Shown piece after piece: positions 10,806-19,044 of a stretch of DNA of 64,000 bases. The DNA is taken from contig CAWIVH010000021.1 of assembly GCA_963839475.1 (NCBI GenBank), forward strand, positions 585,265 through 649,264, written 5' to 3'. The stretch comes from an uncultured Acidobacteriota bacterium. Lineage in GTDB: Bacteria; Acidobacteriota; UBA6911. Every line of letters starts with the position of its first letter. Positions within the stretch are counted from its first letter, which is position 1. The notes under the pieces are model-generated. The model had not been told where the DNA came from and did no database searches. It worked only from the letters and a program-made list of their open reading frames with translations. Made by a program: the position numbers and the translations under genes.

Positions 10806-11297
10806 TCAGCCAAGAAGCTGATCGATACGATAAAGCATGCCCTCGCGGGTGTAGGATGCCAATTCCACAATCCCGGTATCCATGCGTATGGCATCCTCCG
10901 GACATGCTTCCACACAGAATCCGCAAAATACGCATACGCCAAGGTCGATGTCGAAGATCTTGGGCATTTTTTCCACGTTGGGATCGGGATGCTCCATGGC
11001 AACGATGTGAATGCAGCGAGCCGGGCAGACGGTTTCACACATCATGCAGGCTACGCAGCGGGGCGTCCCGTCGTTTCGTTTCATCAAACGGTGACGCGTG
11101 CGCAAGCGACGCGCAAATGCCCGTCTCTCTTCAGGATACTGGATAGTGACCGTTTCTCCCTTGTCCAGCTTGAATCCGAGCGCGCGGAGCAGGTGCCGCC
11201 AGATATTGACCATGAAATGCCGTGTGGTCAGGGCAATACCCTTGGTCACTTCTGTGATGTACAGTCGTTCAAGCAGCCCCAGGGGTTCCTGTTTCAT
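10806..11297 (-). CDS. nuoI: NADH-quinone oxidoreductase subunit I
   Basis: TIQYPEE; CVACMMCETVCP and CVFCGFCVEACP 4Fe-4S motifs. Confidence 0.92.
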   Translation of the reverse strand: MKQEPLGLLERLYITEVTKGIALTTRHFMVNIWRHLLRALGFKLDKGETVTIQYPEERRAFARRLRTRHRLMKRNDGTPRCVACMMCETVCPARCIHIVAMEHPDPNVEKMPKIFDIDLGVCVFCGFCVEACPEDAIRMDTGIVELASYTREGMLYRIDQLLG

Positions 11298-11436: not shown

Positions 11437-12405
11437 CTAGACCGAAGAGGCAACCTCACTCACACGCTGGTGGATCAGGTCAAAATGACGCTGTTCTGCT
11501 TCTGCGAACTTCAGGAAGATCCGCTTCCCTTCCGTATCAATAAACTTCTCGGCAAAGTCCCGGATAAAATTGGCGGCGCGATTCTCGTACTCCGTGGCAA
11601 GGGCAAGCGCATCCCGTGCATCCAGGAACAACTGACCATCCTTCGCATAGGCTGAAATGTCCGGCTCAATCTTTTTCAGATCGGCCCGATTGAAATGCAG
11701 AAAAATAGGCGCCTGCTCCAATCCGCTCTCCTGCTCCTGGACTTTTTTCAGCTCAGCCTGCAGGCCCTCCAGGTGCAGTAATTCTTCACTTATTACCTCT
11801 TCCAGCACCTCCCGACCCTGCGGGTCGCGGTTTCTTGCGGCTAGTTCGCGGTAGAACTCAATTCCACGGTTCTCCAGCTCAATGGCCATTCTCAGCGCAT
11901 CCCGGGCAAAAACCTTTTCCGTATCGTTTTTGTGCGGGTCGGCAGCTCCGGGCTGGGCCTGGCAGTCCTGGCAGATGCCATAAATTTCCAGCCGGTGCAG
12001 CATCGGCCTAAAATTATATTGGCCCACAATAGAATCCTGGATGCGTTCCAATTCAGGCGAAATAAACTCGATTGCCTTGTGGCACTCCGTGCAAACGATG
12101 TGGTGATGGTGCGGGTGCCGATAATCGTGCTCGAACCGGGTCACATCGTCATGCAACATGATCATGCGCGCAATGCCGCAGTCGGTCAGGGATTTCAAGG
12201 TGCGAAATACGGTTACGATGCCGACCCGCCTATCCTTCTTTTTTACGAGTTCGTAGACATCTTCCACGCTCAGGTGCCCTTCAGCCCTGAGAAAAGTCTT
12301 AAGGATTAATTCCTTTTGATGAGTTTTCTTCAGCCCGTGTTGGCGAAGATAAGAATGGAAGAGCTGGATCTCCTCCTCGACTGCCTTGTGCTCAGCCACG
12401 ATCAA
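11437..12405 (-). CDS. Fur-family regulator fused to a rubrerythrin/ferritin-like domain
   Basis: N-terminal HLSVEDVY, TVFRTL, HHHHIVCTEC, GICQDC; C-terminal AIELENRGIEFY..EELLH and EYENRA..EAEQRH. Confidence 0.88.
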   Translation of the reverse strand: MIVAEHKAVEEEIQLFHSYLRQHGLKKTHQKELILKTFLRAEGHLSVEDVYELVKKKDRRVGIVTVFRTLKSLTDCGIARMIMLHDDVTRFEHDYRHPHHHHIVCTECHKAIEFISPELERIQDSIVGQYNFRPMLHRLEIYGICQDCQAQPGAADPHKNDTEKVFARDALRMAIELENRGIEFYRELAARNRDPQGREVLEEVISEELLHLEGLQAELKKVQEQESGLEQAPIFLHFNRADLKKIEPDISAYAKDGQLFLDARDALALATEYENRAANFIRDFAEKFIDTEGKRIFLKFAEAEQRHFDLIHQRVSEVASSV

Positions 12406-14059: not shown

Positions 14060-14464
14060 CTAATTGACCCACTTCAGGTGATCAGGCGGGACGGGGATTG
14101 TGTCCGATAGGGGTCTGCGATGAGCAAAATTCTCCCAGGTTTTATGCGTGTAGAGTATTTTTGCTTCGCCATAGGTCCAGCAGTAAAGGAGCTCCGGATC
14201 CAAAGATTGAAAGTCTACCGTGAAGTACCCTTTGGGCGCCGCACCAAATTGCCGGATTTTGTCTGACCACTCCGCCAGGGCGGTTTTTACCTCATTCATT
14301 ACGGACTCTGGCATTTCGGCCTCCGGATCCAGCGGATCCAAATGGAGCCGATGTCGGATATCTTCCAGGCGATCCACGGCCTCTTCTGTCGCAGCCGCCA
14401 CCTGGGGAACTGCGGCATTGGCTTCGGCCAGGCTGAAGACCTTTACAGGCATGCTCGGTGTCAT
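14060..14464 (-). CDS. DUF2203-like protein
   Basis: FSLAEANA..P start; VDF..YCWTYGE..I.Y.H..FAHRRPL. Confidence 0.7.
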   Translation of the reverse strand: MTPSMPVKVFSLAEANAAVPQVAAATEEAVDRLEDIRHRLHLDPLDPEAEMPESVMNEVKTALAEWSDKIRQFGAAPKGYFTVDFQSLDPELLYCWTYGEAKILYTHKTWENFAHRRPLSDTIPVPPDHLKWVN

Positions 14465-14501
14465 CCTCGTATCTCCGACCGCCCGGGCGGCAGGCTATTC
14501 T

Positions 14502-15530
14502 TTATTTCAGGGTCTCGAAAACGCTGATGTTTCTCAACTGCGCCAGCCGCTCAAAAAACGGAATTGCTTTGCGCACCGTATGGGTATTAATCATGAAGCT
14601 GCCAAGTATCACAGGAAGCATCGGCCGCGCTGCGGGACAATTCTGGCAAGCGGTGTAGCCTTTCAGGTCTCTGGAAAGATGCGCCTCCCGCAGCCGAACC
14701 ATGGGATCAGAGTTCCAGATTTCGCCCAGGCTGTTCTTCCTCAGGTCGCCTACTGGCGCCTGCGGATAAATATAACAGCATGGGAAAACTGTGCCATCAT
14801 AGTGTATGTACATCGGCCCCCGCCAGAGGAGATAACAGGGATGCTTGAGCGGCGGCCGGTCTATGTTGTCTCCTGGGATAGCGCTCCCTTCGTTGTGGAC
14901 CTCATCTTTTTTGATCCGCACCTCATCGATCCCTTCGACTCGCCACATACGTATCAGGTCCGGAATCTCTTTCCGGTTGTCCTTGAGCGCCACCATTTGC
15001 ACAATACAAAAGATCTTCGAGCGAAGCTGTTTTTTAACCCGCAGGAATGCCAGGATGTTGTTTCTCACCTTTTCAAAGCTGGCCCCCTTGCGATAGGTTT
15101 CAAAGCTTTCCTTGGTTGCCCCATCGAAAGCAAAAATGATGTAGTCCAGTCCGGCTTCGATCAGCTTCCGGCTGGAATCCTCGTTAAGAATCGTGGCGTT
15201 GGTCGATATCCCGCAGGGGACGTTCGATTGCCTGCAATAGGCAATCATGTCGTAAATCTCGGGATTGAGCAGAGGCTCGCCAACACCATAGGGAACGGCA
15301 AATTCAAGAAAGTCTTTGGCCTCGTCGATTATTTTGCGGAAAAGCGGAAGTTCCATGTCTCTTGGGGGGAAATAAATATTCTCCCTGGGACACATCGGGC
15401 AGAACAGGTTGCACTTGGCGGTGCTTTCGATCGCAAGGGATAGCGGGCCGCCCGGAACTCGTGAGCTTCTTAACAGATAGCTTTTCAGCAGGCCCAGCCT
15501 GTTACGCAATTGAGCCGAGAGTGATGCCAT
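14502..15530 (-). CDS. Radical SAM protein with SPASM/twitch domain
   Basis: CNLFCPMC, GEPLL; C-terminal C..GTVFPCC..CQNC. Confidence 0.9.
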   Translation of the reverse strand: MASLSAQLRNRLGLLKSYLLRSSRVPGGPLSLAIESTAKCNLFCPMCPRENIYFPPRDMELPLFRKIIDEAKDFLEFAVPYGVGEPLLNPEIYDMIAYCRQSNVPCGISTNATILNEDSSRKLIEAGLDYIIFAFDGATKESFETYRKGASFEKVRNNILAFLRVKKQLRSKIFCIVQMVALKDNRKEIPDLIRMWRVEGIDEVRIKKDEVHNEGSAIPGDNIDRPPLKHPCYLLWRGPMYIHYDGTVFPCCYIYPQAPVGDLRKNSLGEIWNSDPMVRLREAHLSRDLKGYTACQNCPAARPMLPVILGSFMINTHTVRKAIPFFERLAQLRNISVFETLK

Positions 15531-15672: not shown

Positions 15673-17013
15673 TTATCGATCCAATTCACCCGCAATCATG
15701 TTGATCGAGCCGAAGGTGGCCACGATGTCGGCAACCATGTAGCCTTCCAGCATTTTGTGCAGGCCTGCCATGTTGAAAAAGCAGGGCGGCCGGACGCGAA
15801 CCCGATAAGGGCGATCATTGCCGCTGCTGACCACGAAAAAGCCCAGTTCTCCGTTGGCACCCTCAACGGCGAAATAGGTTTCCCCCACCGGCGGCCTGAT
15901 ACCGTGGTAATCCATGATCAGCTTGAAGTGGTTCATCAGCCCTTCGATGTTGCCGTAAGTGTCATCTTTACTGGGAAGAACAACGCGCTTGTCTGCGGGC
16001 ATGACCCGGTCGTGGTGATGGCGCTCCGTACCCTCAAGCGTTGGCTCCACCGTCGTTAAAATATTCACCAGGCCGGCGGTTTTGCCCATCTTCGCCTGGT
16101 CTACCAGATCAAAAGATGCAATCACCTTGCCTTCCGAATCGACATTTACGTCGCCGCCGGGAAGTTCCCTGATCGCCTGGCGGGTCATCCGGATGCTCTG
16201 TCGCATTTCCTCCATGCGGACCAGGTACCGGTCATAATTGTCTCCGCGTTCGCCCAGCGGGACCTCAAAATCCAACTGGTCATAGGCAAAATAAGGAAAA
16301 GCCTTTCGAACATCATAATCGATCCCGGAGGCACGGGCCATGGGTCCGGTAATAGCGTAGCTGAGTGCATCAGCCCGCGTCAGCACCCCGACATCCCTGG
16401 TACGGTCCACAAAAATCCGGTTGCGCGTCAGAAGCTTGTCGACATCCGCGATTTCCTTTTCCGTCTTTTTCAGCGCAACTTCAAGCCGATCCCCAAACCC
16501 CTCGGGCAGATCACCTTTAATTCCCCCGATCCGGCCATAGGAGACCGTGAGGCGCGCCCCTGTGACCTCTTCCACCAGCTCATACAAATATTCCCGCGCC
16601 TTCATCAGGTACAGGAAAGCTGTCATTGCCCCCAGTTCCATCGCCGATGCCGCAATACAAGTCAAATGGTCGGTAACACGGGAGATTTCACTCATGATCA
16701 CCCGTATAAATTTGCAGCGATCCGTGATCTCGATGCCTAGAAGCTTCTCGACAGCCGCACAGTAGCCGAAATTGTTAATCAGGGGCGACACGTAGTTCAG
16801 ACGGTCCGTATAGGGCATCACCTGAGTCCAACTGGACTCCTCGGCGCTTTTCTCGAAAGCTCGGTGAAGGTAACCGATTTCAGCCTCCACCTTGACCACG
16901 GTTTCCCCTTCCAGTTCCGTGATCAGGCGAATGACCCCGTGCATCGCCGGATGCGACGGCCCAATATTCAAAAGCATGTTTTTCACTTCTTTGATCGCAG
17001 CGGCGGATTCCAT
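15673..17013 (-). CDS. nuoD: NADH-quinone oxidoreductase subunit D
   Basis: NIGPSHPAMHG, GYLHRAFEK, DRLNY, EGANGELG, IAGELDR. Confidence 0.95.
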   Translation of the reverse strand: MESAAAIKEVKNMLLNIGPSHPAMHGVIRLITELEGETVVKVEAEIGYLHRAFEKSAEESSWTQVMPYTDRLNYVSPLINNFGYCAAVEKLLGIEITDRCKFIRVIMSEISRVTDHLTCIAASAMELGAMTAFLYLMKAREYLYELVEEVTGARLTVSYGRIGGIKGDLPEGFGDRLEVALKKTEKEIADVDKLLTRNRIFVDRTRDVGVLTRADALSYAITGPMARASGIDYDVRKAFPYFAYDQLDFEVPLGERGDNYDRYLVRMEEMRQSIRMTRQAIRELPGGDVNVDSEGKVIASFDLVDQAKMGKTAGLVNILTTVEPTLEGTERHHHDRVMPADKRVVLPSKDDTYGNIEGLMNHFKLIMDYHGIRPPVGETYFAVEGANGELGFFVVSSGNDRPYRVRVRPPCFFNMAGLHKMLEGYMVADIVATFGSINMIAGELDR

Positions 17014-17021
17014 GACGTCCC

Positions 17022-17495
17022 CTATAAGAGCTGCTTCTCTTTTTCGATTCTGGTCTGAAGCTTCATGAGCCCGTCGAGGACAGCCTCAGGCCGGGGCGGG
17101 CACCCCGGAATGTAAATATCGACCGGAATGATCGTATCAATCCCCTGAACAGTCGCATAGTTATCGTAAAACCCACCGGTGCAGGTACACACACCAAAAG
17201 CTACGACCCATTTCGGCTCGCACATTTGCTCGTACACACGCTTCAAAATCGGGGCAATTTTGTGGCTGACGGTCCCGACTACGAAAAGAACATCCGATTG
17301 ACGGGGCGAAAACCGAGGCAATCCCGCGCCAAATCGGTCGATGTCGTAGTGACCTGAGGCCGCTGACATATACTCCATGCCGCAGCAGGCAGTGACGAAT
17401 GGATACACAAATATGGAATACTTGCGAGCCCAGCCCACAGCACGCTCAAGTTTCGATGTGAAGAAACCCGGTCCCTCACCCTGATCAATCGCCAT
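17022..17495 (-). CDS. nuoB: NADH-quinone oxidoreductase subunit B
   Basis: TACCGME, SPRQSD, GVCTCTGG, YIPGCPPRPE. Confidence 0.96.
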   Translation of the reverse strand: MAIDQGEGPGFFTSKLERAVGWARKYSIFVYPFVTACCGMEYMSAASGHYDIDRFGAGLPRFSPRQSDVLFVVGTVSHKIAPILKRVYEQMCEPKWVVAFGVCTCTGGFYDNYATVQGIDTIIPVDIYIPGCPPRPEAVLDGLMKLQTRIEKEKQLL

Positions 17496-17535
17496 TTCAG
17501 TTCCTCTCGCCTGCCTTCATGGTTCCCCTGACGGC

Positions 17536-18027
17536 TCACTGAAGAATTACATCGAAAGTGGAAGGCACGCTCTCCCGCGGCATCAGATTGGCACAATCGG
17601 CGCAGCTCAGCGAATCCAGCAAGACCGTGTGATCGCATTTCTCGCAGGAATGGAGTAAGTGGATTGCGTCTGCCAATTCCTTTTTCAGTCTATTCAGCGC
17701 CTCGAGACGCTGATTCACAGCCTCCAACTTTTCCGAAAATATGCTGAGCAGGAATCCTACGGCTTCACGGCTCTCACCGGAAGTCTTTTTTGCCAGAAAA
17801 ATGTCCCGGATTTCAGTCAGGGTCAGACCCAGTTCCTTCAGGAAATTGACTACCTGGATCCGTTTGAGGTTTTCCTGGCCATAGAGCCGGAATCCTCCCG
17901 CACTGTGAGACTCCGGCTTCAGCAGTCCAAGCTCCTCATAGTAACGAATCGCACGGACGCTGACGCGAGCGCGTCCAGCAAAATCGCCTATTTGCATCAC
18001 CTCGTCTGATTTGCTCTTTTTTGCCAT
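17536..18027 (-). CDS. MerR-family transcriptional regulator with C-terminal CxxC-x10-CxxC
   Basis: IGDFA..VSVRAIRYYEELGLL, GFRLY, LKELGLTLTEI; tail CEKC..CADC; start set to ATG 18027. Confidence 0.9.
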   Translation of the reverse strand: MAKKSKSDEVMQIGDFAGRARVSVRAIRYYEELGLLKPESHSAGGFRLYGQENLKRIQVVNFLKELGLTLTEIRDIFLAKKTSGESREAVGFLLSIFSEKLEAVNQRLEALNRLKKELADAIHLLHSCEKCDHTVLLDSLSCADCANLMPRESVPSTFDVILQ

Positions 18028-18033
18028 CCTCTC

Positions 18034-18063
18034 AACCTTAACGTTAACGGCATAGTTTGTCAA
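18034..18063 (-). promoter_or_regulatory. merR-nuoBD promoter with candidate MerR operator
   Basis: TTGACA-17 nt-TAAGGT; dyad AACCTTAACGTTAACGGCATAGTT at 18034-18057. Confidence 0.7.
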
Positions 18064-18099
18064 GCGACGATGCCATTGCCTCTGGTACATGCCTGAAAA

Positions 18100-18501
18100 T
18101 CAAGGATTAAGGTAGCTGCGGGGGCAGCTCAATTCGATTTCAATGCAGTCGAGCTTTTCGACCAGGGACATGGGGCGCTTTCGAACCCGGACGGTCACTT
18201 TCCGCACAGGAAAGGCCTCCAGGATTTCCCGGGCCAGACTTTGCGCCAAAGTTTCCAGCAGGTTGTACTCCCTGGCGTGGGCGACCGCCTGGACTTTACG
18301 CAAAACCTGACTGTAGTTTATCGCCCGGTCCAGTGAATCGCTGGCGGCTGCAGCAGAAAAATCGCCCTCAAGAATGACATCCGTCTGACATGGCTGGGGA
18401 AGACGCCGTTCTCCGGGGGTAACTCCGATCCGCGGTCTGATTTTGACACCAAGCAAGGAAATTTTATCCGTACGTTCGCTTTCGGCATCCATCCCGTTCA
18501 T
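18100..18501 (-). CDS. folB: Dihydroneopterin aldolase
   Basis: IGVTPGER..Q, SDSL..AINYS, YNLLETLA, VRVRK. Confidence 0.88.
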   Translation of the reverse strand: MNGMDAESERTDKISLLGVKIRPRIGVTPGERRLPQPCQTDVILEGDFSAAAASDSLDRAINYSQVLRKVQAVAHAREYNLLETLAQSLAREILEAFPVRKVTVRVRKRPMSLVEKLDCIEIELSCPRSYLNP

Positions 18502-18560
18502 CCTTGCTCCATTATGGAATGACACCCGCACCTCGATGGATCAAGAATGTCATTTTGTGG

Positions 18561-18596
18561 AAAAAAAAACGCGGGCTGAGATCAACGCCCGCGTTT
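18561..18596 (-). terminator. Rho-independent terminator after erpA/iscA
   Basis: Minus strand AAACGCGGGC-loop-GCCCGCG followed by T9. Confidence 0.85.
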
Positions 18597-18625
18597 ATAG
18601 CCGAGTAACTTTCTGTGCCGGCGCC

Positions 18626-18946
18626 CTATGCGTGGAACGACTCTCCGCATCCGCAAGATCCCTTGGAATTGGGATTGTCAAACTTGAACCCGGAACCGGT
18701 CAATCCATCCACGTAATCCACCTTGGTGCCGGTCAGGTACAACAGCGACCGGCTATCAACAAAAACCTTCAGGCCGTCCTGTTCAAGCACCTTATCATCC
18801 GCCGACGGCTGTTTATCCAAAGCCATCTGGTATTGAAATCCCGAGCAGCCGCCTCCTACTACCGAAATCCTAAGGCCGCCCTCCCCGCCACGTTCCGCAA
18901 TAATGGATTTGACCTTTTCAACAGCCGTGCTGGTCAAAGTAAGCAT
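18626..18946 (-). CDS. erpA: A-type Fe-S carrier (IscA/ErpA, HesB family)
   Basis: GGCSGFQY and NPN..SCGCGESF; SD AGGAG before ATG 18946. Confidence 0.9.
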   Translation of the reverse strand: MLTLTSTAVEKVKSIIAERGGEGGLRISVVGGGCSGFQYQMALDKQPSADDKVLEQDGLKVFVDSRSLLYLTGTKVDYVDGLTGSGFKFDNPNSKGSCGCGESFHA

Positions 18947-19011
18947 CGAGTCTCCTTTCCTAATCAATCCTGCTCCCACGGATCCTTAAATTCTCTCCCA
19001 AGAGCGCATTT

Positions 19012-19044
19012 AAGCTACAATATTCTTACGTTAATGTCAAGGTT
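19012..19044 (-). promoter_or_regulatory. erpA promoter with candidate MerR operator over the -35
   Basis: TTGACA-17 nt-TAGCTT; minus strand AACCTTGACATTAACGTAAGAATA. Confidence 0.7.

Follow-up and report, generated by a model that had tools for sequence, protein, structure and literature searches.

A four-cysteine MerR-family regulator and its candidate operator at iron-sulfur supply genes of an uncultured Acidobacteriota bacterium

The stretch of DNA studied here, referred to below as the window, comprises 64,000 nt (positions 585,265-649,264 of contig CAWIVH010000021.1) of the genome of an uncultured Acidobacteriota bacterium (GTDB UBA6911, assembly GCA_963839475.1). On the minus strand of the window lie, in this order, erpA, which encodes an A-type carrier of iron-sulfur (Fe-S) clusters, a terminator, folB, a merR gene, nuoB and nuoD, followed by a radical-SAM/SPASM gene, a DUF2203 gene and map (Table 1). 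The MerR-family protein carries a C-terminal tail with four cysteines, and the promoters of erpA and merR contain copies of the same palindrome. A preliminary description of the locus proposed that this palindrome is an operator shared by the two promoters and that the protein governs an Fe-S-sensing regulon for complex I. Sequence comparisons indicate that the operator and the regulator are a real and conserved pair for genes of Fe-S supply and that the regulator belongs to a MerR subfamily whose cysteine tail is new. We consider it somewhat more probable than an even chance that the protein is, as a whole, an Fe-S- or iron-sensing repressor of erpA comparable to IscR or SufR.

Table 1. Coordinates of the features of the erpA-merR-nuoB-nuoD locus in the window
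Feature	Position	Strand	Details
Operator copy at the erpA promoter	19021..19044	-	half-sites AACCTTGACATT and AACGTAAGAATA; the left half-site contains the -35
erpA -35 hexamer TTGACA	19035..19040	-	17-nt spacer; -10 TAGCTT at 19012-19017
erpA-like gene, A-type Fe-S carrier	18626..18946	-	106 aa; above cut-offs of PF01521 and TIGR00049
Intrinsic terminator after erpA	18561..18596	-	10-bp stem and U9, -19 kcal/mol, z -3.96
folB-like gene, dihydroneopterin aldolase family	18100..18531	-	PF02152; start uncertain (18531, 18501 or 18492)
Operator copy at the merR promoter	18034..18057	-	in gene orientation, half-sites AACTATGCCGTT and AACGTTAAGGTT; the right half-site contains the -10 TAAGGT
Four-cysteine MerR-family regulator gene	17536..18027	-	likely start ATG 17997 (MQIG..., 153 aa); 163 aa from 18027
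Codons for C118-x2-C121-x10-C132-x2-C135	17593..17646	-	numbering from MQIG; directly after the long dimerisation helix
nuoB (cluster N2 subunit)	17022..17495	-	40 nt after merR; NF011392 271.5 vs cut-off 271
nuoD	15673..17013	-	446 aa; TIGR01962 484.3 vs cut-off 459.35; other models match in two stretches

The product of the erpA-like gene scores 129.9 with TIGR00049 (cut-off 58.8) and 114.9 with the ErpA model NF010147, just under its cut-off of 117; the scores of the SufA and IscA models are also below their cut-offs. It is the only A-type carrier gene found in the genome (a single tblastn match). The terminator after erpA that the preliminary description had pointed out is real. It was said there to separate the erpA and merR units; folB, which had been overlooked, is located between the terminator and merR.

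The preliminary description listed two 24-mers that agree at 14 of their first 16 nt, AACCTTAACGTTAACGGCATAGTT at 18034-18057 (plus strand) and AACCTTGACATTAACGTAAGAATA at 19021-19044 (minus strand), and both were found as described. Both represent one palindromic operator of 24 bp, whose ideal site consists of the half-sites AACCTTGACGTT and AACGTCAAGGTT. The erpA copy agrees with the ideal site at 11 of 12 positions in the left half and at 7 of 12 in the right half, and the merR copy at 20 of 24. With at most one mismatch allowed, the pattern AACCTTRACRTTAACG has two matches in the window vs none in 100 shuffles. The same two positions are its only matches in the whole genome of 8.26 Mb (labelled G000).

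A weight matrix built from 12 erpA sites placed the merR site only ninth in the genome (14.5 bits) and was replaced by an independent matrix. The latter was built solely from the 11 merR-nifU promoter sites of a ‘delta proteobacterium’ group of metagenome-assembled genomes (MAGs), described below, so the window sites were excluded from its training. Among the 16.5 million positions of G000 the highest score was that of the merR site (27.4 bits), followed by that of the erpA site (24.9 bits); the next matches were one of 21.5 bits inside an ATP-grasp open reading frame (ORF) and one of 20.7 bits. This last candidate, which is fourth among the distinct operator-like sites of the genome, lies outside the window (C21:570324-570347, L143:4025-4048) and has TTAACGTAAGA in common with the erpA site. 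It precedes, by about 250 nt, a radical-SAM gene (651 aa) with an HMPTM zinc ribbon. The shared recognition stretch [ST][VT]R[AT]IRYYEE-GL is missing from the three other MerR paralogs of G000, and the promoter of the CueR-like paralog carries a different palindrome.

The merR promoter consists of the -35 hexamer TTGACA (18058-18063) and the -10 TAAGGT (18035-18040) with a 17-nt spacer. An operator half-site holds a -35 TTGACr when read forward and the -10-like TAAGGT when read backward, and the centre of the dyad is 2 nt past the -35 in sites of the erpA type and 12 nt past it at merR. A consensus promoter scan of the window called neither the erpA nor the merR promoter, since their -10 elements each share only three of six positions with TATAAT. 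The scan instead called TTAAAA-16-TATAAT (19113-19086, minus strand) in an AT-rich stretch upstream of the erpA operator; this element, which is not conserved in relatives, may represent a second promoter or an element of the UP type.

The regulator has the N-terminal winged helix-turn-helix of the MerR family (PF13411, 61.3 bits, and PF00376, 45.8 bits, both above cut-offs) and a dimerisation helix (PF09278, 36.9 vs cut-off 25.4), which an AlphaFold model places at residues 76-119. It scores below the cut-offs of all 16 NCBIfam equivalog models, the best being ZntR (NF007069, 69.8 vs 143). Its tail reads SCEKC-x10-CADC, i.e., C-x2-C-x10-C-x2-C, and is indeed not the SoxR motif, as the preliminary description had stated (TIGR01950, 50.7 vs 116.9). 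We aligned the window protein with 24 proteins chosen from 120 listed relatives. C118, C121, C132 and C135 are invariant in all 25 rows of this alignment, as are L126-L127-D128 and V144-P145; the MQIG start is used by 14 of the rows. Among 38 tail-bearing sequences from several phyla, the two cysteine pairs are 8-10 residues apart and are followed by a proline and then by a short hydrophobic helix. These alignments suggest that the gene product falls into a MerR subfamily of its own, defined by the invariant C-x2-C-x(8-10)-C-x2-C tail. In the AlphaFold model C118 is at the end of the dimerisation helix, and the tail is thereby predicted to be placed where metal-sensing MerR proteins bind their effector. 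A quick tree of 64 rows, based on the N-terminal 112 residues, supports the lineage clades (93, 99, 99) and leaves the backbone open; it neither shows nor excludes a single origin of the tail.

A full-length MerR ortholog with the tail was found in 12 of the 41 genomes searched, the window genome included, and all 12 belong to the family of the window genome. The order erpA-folB-merR is kept in all 11 relatives that have the ortholog; nuoB and nuoD follow in ten of them, and the remaining locus (L006) ends after merR. A terminator-like stem with a T-run is visible after erpA in 11 of the 12 loci. Upstream of erpA, at a distance of 67-116 nt, 12/12 loci have the element cAACCTTGACwTTnACGTAAGAAtT, while the flanking intergenic DNA is unalignable. 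The erpA promoter, TTGACA-17-TAnnnT, is likewise kept in all of these loci; the operator covers its -35 and spacer, and the spacer is as conserved as the -35. Thus, of the operator that had been proposed for two promoters, the erpA part stands in all 12 genomes with this MerR.

In a pattern scan of the 41 genomes, matches with no more than one mismatch occurred solely at erpA, in 11 MerR-bearing genomes; the twelfth has two mismatches there. The reversed pattern, used as a control, gave 10 matches in all. Matches with two mismatches upstream of rex (G005, G012), upstream of cysM-mec (G009, G014) and near a hemerythrin-like ORF (G019) were not counted, because their number equals the expectation from this control. 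Palindromes of the TTACGTwwACGTAA type are situated directly upstream of cysM-mec, which encode a cysteine synthase and a JAMM peptidase, at two loci of one MerR-bearing genus (L046, L047; G009 C2, G014 C18).

The upstream regions of erpA were also scored with the matrix, for which erpA loci were taken from 20 genomes (G016, G018, G020, G022 and G024 were covered by the pattern scan only). The best scores were 16.1-26.6 bits in the 12 genomes with merR, -7.0 to 4.9 bits in five genomes of the same family without merR, and 12.9 bits at most in other families (ten loci of seven genomes). Three genomes without merR (G002, G006, G007) keep the order erpA-folB-X-nuoB, with ErpA 77-82% identical, and they retain the -35 CCTTGACTTTT and have lost the core ACGTAAGAA. 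Therefore, the core of the operator goes with the regulator rather than with the promoter. The X of these three genomes is a protein of 100-124 aa with a weak match to Fer2_4 [2Fe-2S] (L211:2473-2790; likewise L215 and L217).

The pairing of the regulator with Fe-S genes recurs far from this family. A ‘delta proteobacterium’ MAG encodes a four-cysteine MerR that is 27% identical to the window protein and has an ortholog in 12 of 61 relatives. In this group merR is followed by nifU in all 12 cases and by nifS in at least seven; the gene content of one locus (L131) was confirmed with Pfam. The sequence AACCTTGAC[AG]TTAACGTTAAGGTT lies on the -35 TTGACr, with a spacer of 17-18 nt, in all 11 readable upstream regions. 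At six Latescibacterota-type loci (Latescibacterota, Handelsmanbacteria and one unclassified record) a four-cysteine merR is directly upstream of an erpA homolog. Loci of this type (L055-L060, L067) carry other conserved palindromes, which have the form TATATTCAC-N-GAAATATA over the -10 or the form ACGTCA-CT-TGACGT ahead of the start codon.

A palindrome scan of metagenomes revealed one contig with the order operator-merR-erpA-nuoB and three contigs with merR-nifU. In two other contigs the operator, together with TTGACG-17-TATATT, is situated about 100 nt upstream of sufB (L172:361-382, L177:1006-1027). The SufB proteins of these contigs are 80% identical to that of the window genome, and neither of the stretches examined contains merR. 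At erpA, nifU, sufB and in the merR-erpA-nuoB contig the arrangement is the same: the left half-site is the -35 and the remainder fills the 17-nt spacer, often before TATATT.

The metagenome scan yielded 56 distinct sites, and 29 of them are within 220 nt of the start of a MerR gene. Most of the MerRs without the tail resemble actinobacterial proteins and precede MFS transporter genes, and the operator has the form CCTTGACGTTnACGTnAAGGTT there. At L152 and about 20 other metagenome loci, on GC-rich actinobacteria-like contigs, the palindrome is upstream of merR-MFS operons, in some cases with a second copy before a second transporter gene. Among the 27 sites without a MerR gene, 11 were rejected as coding sequence of ribosomal protein S11, which is not regulatory. 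The palindrome encodes NLDVNVKG there, as read in L155 (L155:2501-2522); there are ten similar loci, and an alpha-operon leader is nearby in all three loci scanned. The S11 coding sequence is thus a source of false matches for this operator motif.

We propose the following mechanism. A dimer of MerR would recognise the 24-bp palindrome and would cover a contact of sigma-70, namely the -35 at erpA and the -10 at merR. It would repress erpA and, in the window genome, also its own merR-nuoB-nuoD unit. The four cysteines would hold an Fe-S cluster or iron, and the loss of this ligand under Fe-S shortage or oxidation would release the DNA, which makes a feedback loop resembling that of IscR or SufR. 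The parts of this scheme are not equally firm. That MerR binds the operator we regard as highly probable. Repression is likely: such promoters would need no activator and the dimer would cover the sigma-70 contact, and since the spacers of both promoters are 17 bp long, the bound dimer should exclude sigma-70. Repression had already been favoured in the preliminary description on account of these spacers, and the position of the operator over the -35 or the -10 speaks for it too. The ligand of the four cysteines may be an Fe-S cluster, rubredoxin-like iron or structural zinc, or the cysteines may form a thiol switch. The first two are favoured because of the target genes, and we would give an Fe-S or iron ligand about an even chance.

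The explanation nearest to the proposed one keeps the same regulator and operator and replaces the ligand: the four cysteines would bind structural zinc or act as a thiol/zinc redox switch, and oxidation of C-x2-C, rather than cluster occupancy, would release the DNA, inducing Fe-S supply after oxidative damage. Two C-x2-C pairs 8-10 residues apart are a common zinc motif; moreover, the tail is unmatched among solved Fe-S regulators and is modelled without geometry. However, it occupies the effector position of metal-sensing MerRs, after the helix that ends at residue 119, nearly all linked genes belong to Fe-S biogenesis, and the known dedicated regulators of such genes, according to a review, bind clusters (PMC8593673). 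We regard a zinc or thiol site as rather unlikely. A canonical MerR-type activator, which stays bound and remodels the promoter on a signal, might be suggested by the closest solved or curated relatives (SoxR, CueR, ZntR and MerR), all of which are activators. Yet the spacers here have 17-18 nt and not the 19-20 nt of the overlong canonical spacer, the half-site is over the -35 (centre 2 nt after it) or, at merR, over the -10 (centre 12 nt after the -35), and several of the target promoters are TTGACr-17-TATATT, which is near consensus. Activation of this kind appears improbable.

The element at erpA might also be a mere strong promoter or a site of another factor, for example, of an Rrf2/IscR-like protein, with the match at merR arising by chance. 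Indeed, the element includes the -35, the matrix of erpA sites gives the merR site the low rank reported above, and G000 has an Rrf2-like gene upstream of suf. A promoter alone would not account for a spacer conserved like the -35 in 12/12 loci, nor for relatives without merR that keep the -35 and lose the core; ranks 1 and 2 of the two sites with the independent matrix and the proximity of 29 of 56 metagenome sites to MerR genes also argue for the MerR protein. We hold this explanation to be very improbable.

Several observations weigh against an Fe-S-sensing repressor with a shared operator. The six Latescibacterota-type loci show other palindromes, and the operator of the window was not found there. 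Five loci with a four-cysteine MerR (L058, L061, L062, L063, L173) have no evident Fe-S neighbour. The merR-proximal site, the second half of the earlier claim of a shared operator, is strong solely in the window genome and weak in one other locus (L008, 9.5 bits); with the independent matrix nothing was found in the other ten loci, so this half did not hold for the family. Only 5 of the 29 MerRs adjacent to metagenome sites have the cysteine tail and 24 lack it. The operator type is therefore common to cysteine-less MerRs, and the DNA motif alone does not identify the four-cysteine subfamily; by these comparisons it is the property of a wider MerR clade. Among the MerR proteins that have been characterised, activators are the majority. 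Finally, the cysteine tail is modelled with a predicted local distance difference test (pLDDT) score below 50, it has no match among solved structures (solved MerR, CadR, CueR and MtaN align to residues 1-118 only), and C-x2-C...C-x2-C is a classic zinc-ribbon pattern too.

Among known regulators, SoxR, a [2Fe-2S] redox sensor and to our knowledge the only known Fe-S protein of the MerR family, has the same fold and four cysteines immediately after the dimerisation helix. Its motif, however, is C-x2-C-x-C-x5-C and not C-x2-C-x8-10-C-x2-C; it activates a long-spacer promoter and controls soxS rather than Fe-S biogenesis. The metal sensors CueR, ZntR, CadR and MerR provide the best curated-model and structure matches over residues 1-118, but equivalog scores are far under the cut-offs, and their metal loops and operator position differ. 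The operator of LiuR is an ACGT-centred palindrome. LiuR and the cysteine-less MerRs differ from the window protein in having no cysteine tail and in their targets, which are catabolic genes or MFS transporters. LiuR is presented as a MerR-family repressor in PMC3223726.

The function proposed here is that of IscR, a member of the Rrf2 family with an unrelated fold and operator; according to a 2021 review, holo-IscR represses isc, erpA and nfuA via inverted repeats, with repression of erpA in E. coli (PMC8593673). The same source describes SufR, a [4Fe-4S] repressor of the DeoR type, as dedicated to an Fe-S operon and as controlling its own expression; its four-cysteine site is C-terminal and its operator is a palindrome (PMC8593673). 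SufR resembles the window protein, in the role proposed here, in these respects. It belongs to another family, its cysteines are spaced as C-x12-C-x13-C-x14-C, and its operator is CAAC-N6-GTTG. The review names IscR and SufR as the only dedicated regulators, nowhere uses the word MerR, and describes regulation as unknown in many bacteria (PMC8593673). A full-text search of a limited literature collection found no MerR-family regulator of Fe-S biogenesis.

A bolder claim, which we put forward tentatively and at clearly less than an even chance, is that such proteins form, beside IscR and SufR, a third class of regulators dedicated to Fe-S biogenesis. This class would be MerR-type repressors that carry an Fe-S cluster on four cysteines and gate erpA, nifU-nifS or suf across Acidobacteriota, Latescibacterota-like and Desulfobacterota-like lineages. 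In the window genome it would also couple the A-type carrier with nuoB-nuoD, the Q-module that carries N2, of a complex I with scattered genes. The regulation of Fe-S supply is understood mainly through IscR and SufR, and poorly studied phyla would be brought into this picture by a MerR-type regulator that has a sensor tail of its own and a clear operator. Such a regulator would show how the same half-site can work as a -35 in one promoter and as a -10 in another, and it would hint that Fe-S-bearing subunits of complex I can be regulated apart from the membrane arm. The 24-bp site, the four cysteines and the two promoters offer a handle for experiments.

The genome has a compact operon, nuoA-B-C-D-H-I-J-K with one antiporter-like gene, just left of the window (C21:577-584 kb). 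A second set of nuo genes is scattered. It includes nuoA-C-G-H without B or D on contig C6 (236.5-240.3 kb), nuoJ, nuoK and several antiporter-like (L/M/N-type) genes at C21:257-263 kb (tblastn matches only), a nuoI-like 2x[4Fe-4S] gene in the window (10806-11297, minus strand) and the merR-linked nuoB-nuoD. Since nuoA-C-G-H lack B and D and the other pieces lie elsewhere, the merR-linked pair is probably the only Q-module of the scattered set. Situated 140 nt upstream of the lone nuoI-like gene is a gene (11437-12405, minus strand) whose product combines a Fur-family protein with a rubrerythrin domain in one fusion; a second Fe-S subunit of the scattered set is thus also behind a gene of a metal-type regulator.

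The link between the regulator and complex I is nevertheless less firm than that with Fe-S biogenesis. The Fe-S part of the regulon suggested in the preliminary description recurs in other phyla, while the complex I part is mostly synteny. A scan of G000 for the operator at suf, at the iscS-like gene and at the other nuo loci found none (best score 11.9 bits), and a regulon reaching complex I genes in general was not borne out. The gap between merR and nuoB is 27-51 nt in three of 11 loci and 99-205 nt in eight, and in three of these eight wide-gap loci it contains a conserved -10-like TATACT. Comparison of gene orders thus gives a suggestive link, namely conserved synteny in one family and one independent merR-erpA-nuoB contig, rather than a demonstrated regulon. 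A paper by Burschel (2019), listed among the references of PMC11327457, reportedly concerns, judging by its title, E. coli ErpA-type carriers in complex I assembly.

Some further features of the locus are less directly related to the regulator. The folB gene is kept between erpA and merR in 12/12 loci; it shows no visible connection with Fe-S metabolism, and no promoter is evident for it. Compared with curated NuoD models, the NuoD protein has an insertion of about 60 aa at about residues 290-350, which is kept in relatives. The radical-SAM/SPASM and DUF2203 genes after nuoD (window positions 14060-15530, minus strand) are found at the same place downstream in four related loci (L050-L053), whose contigs reach that far.

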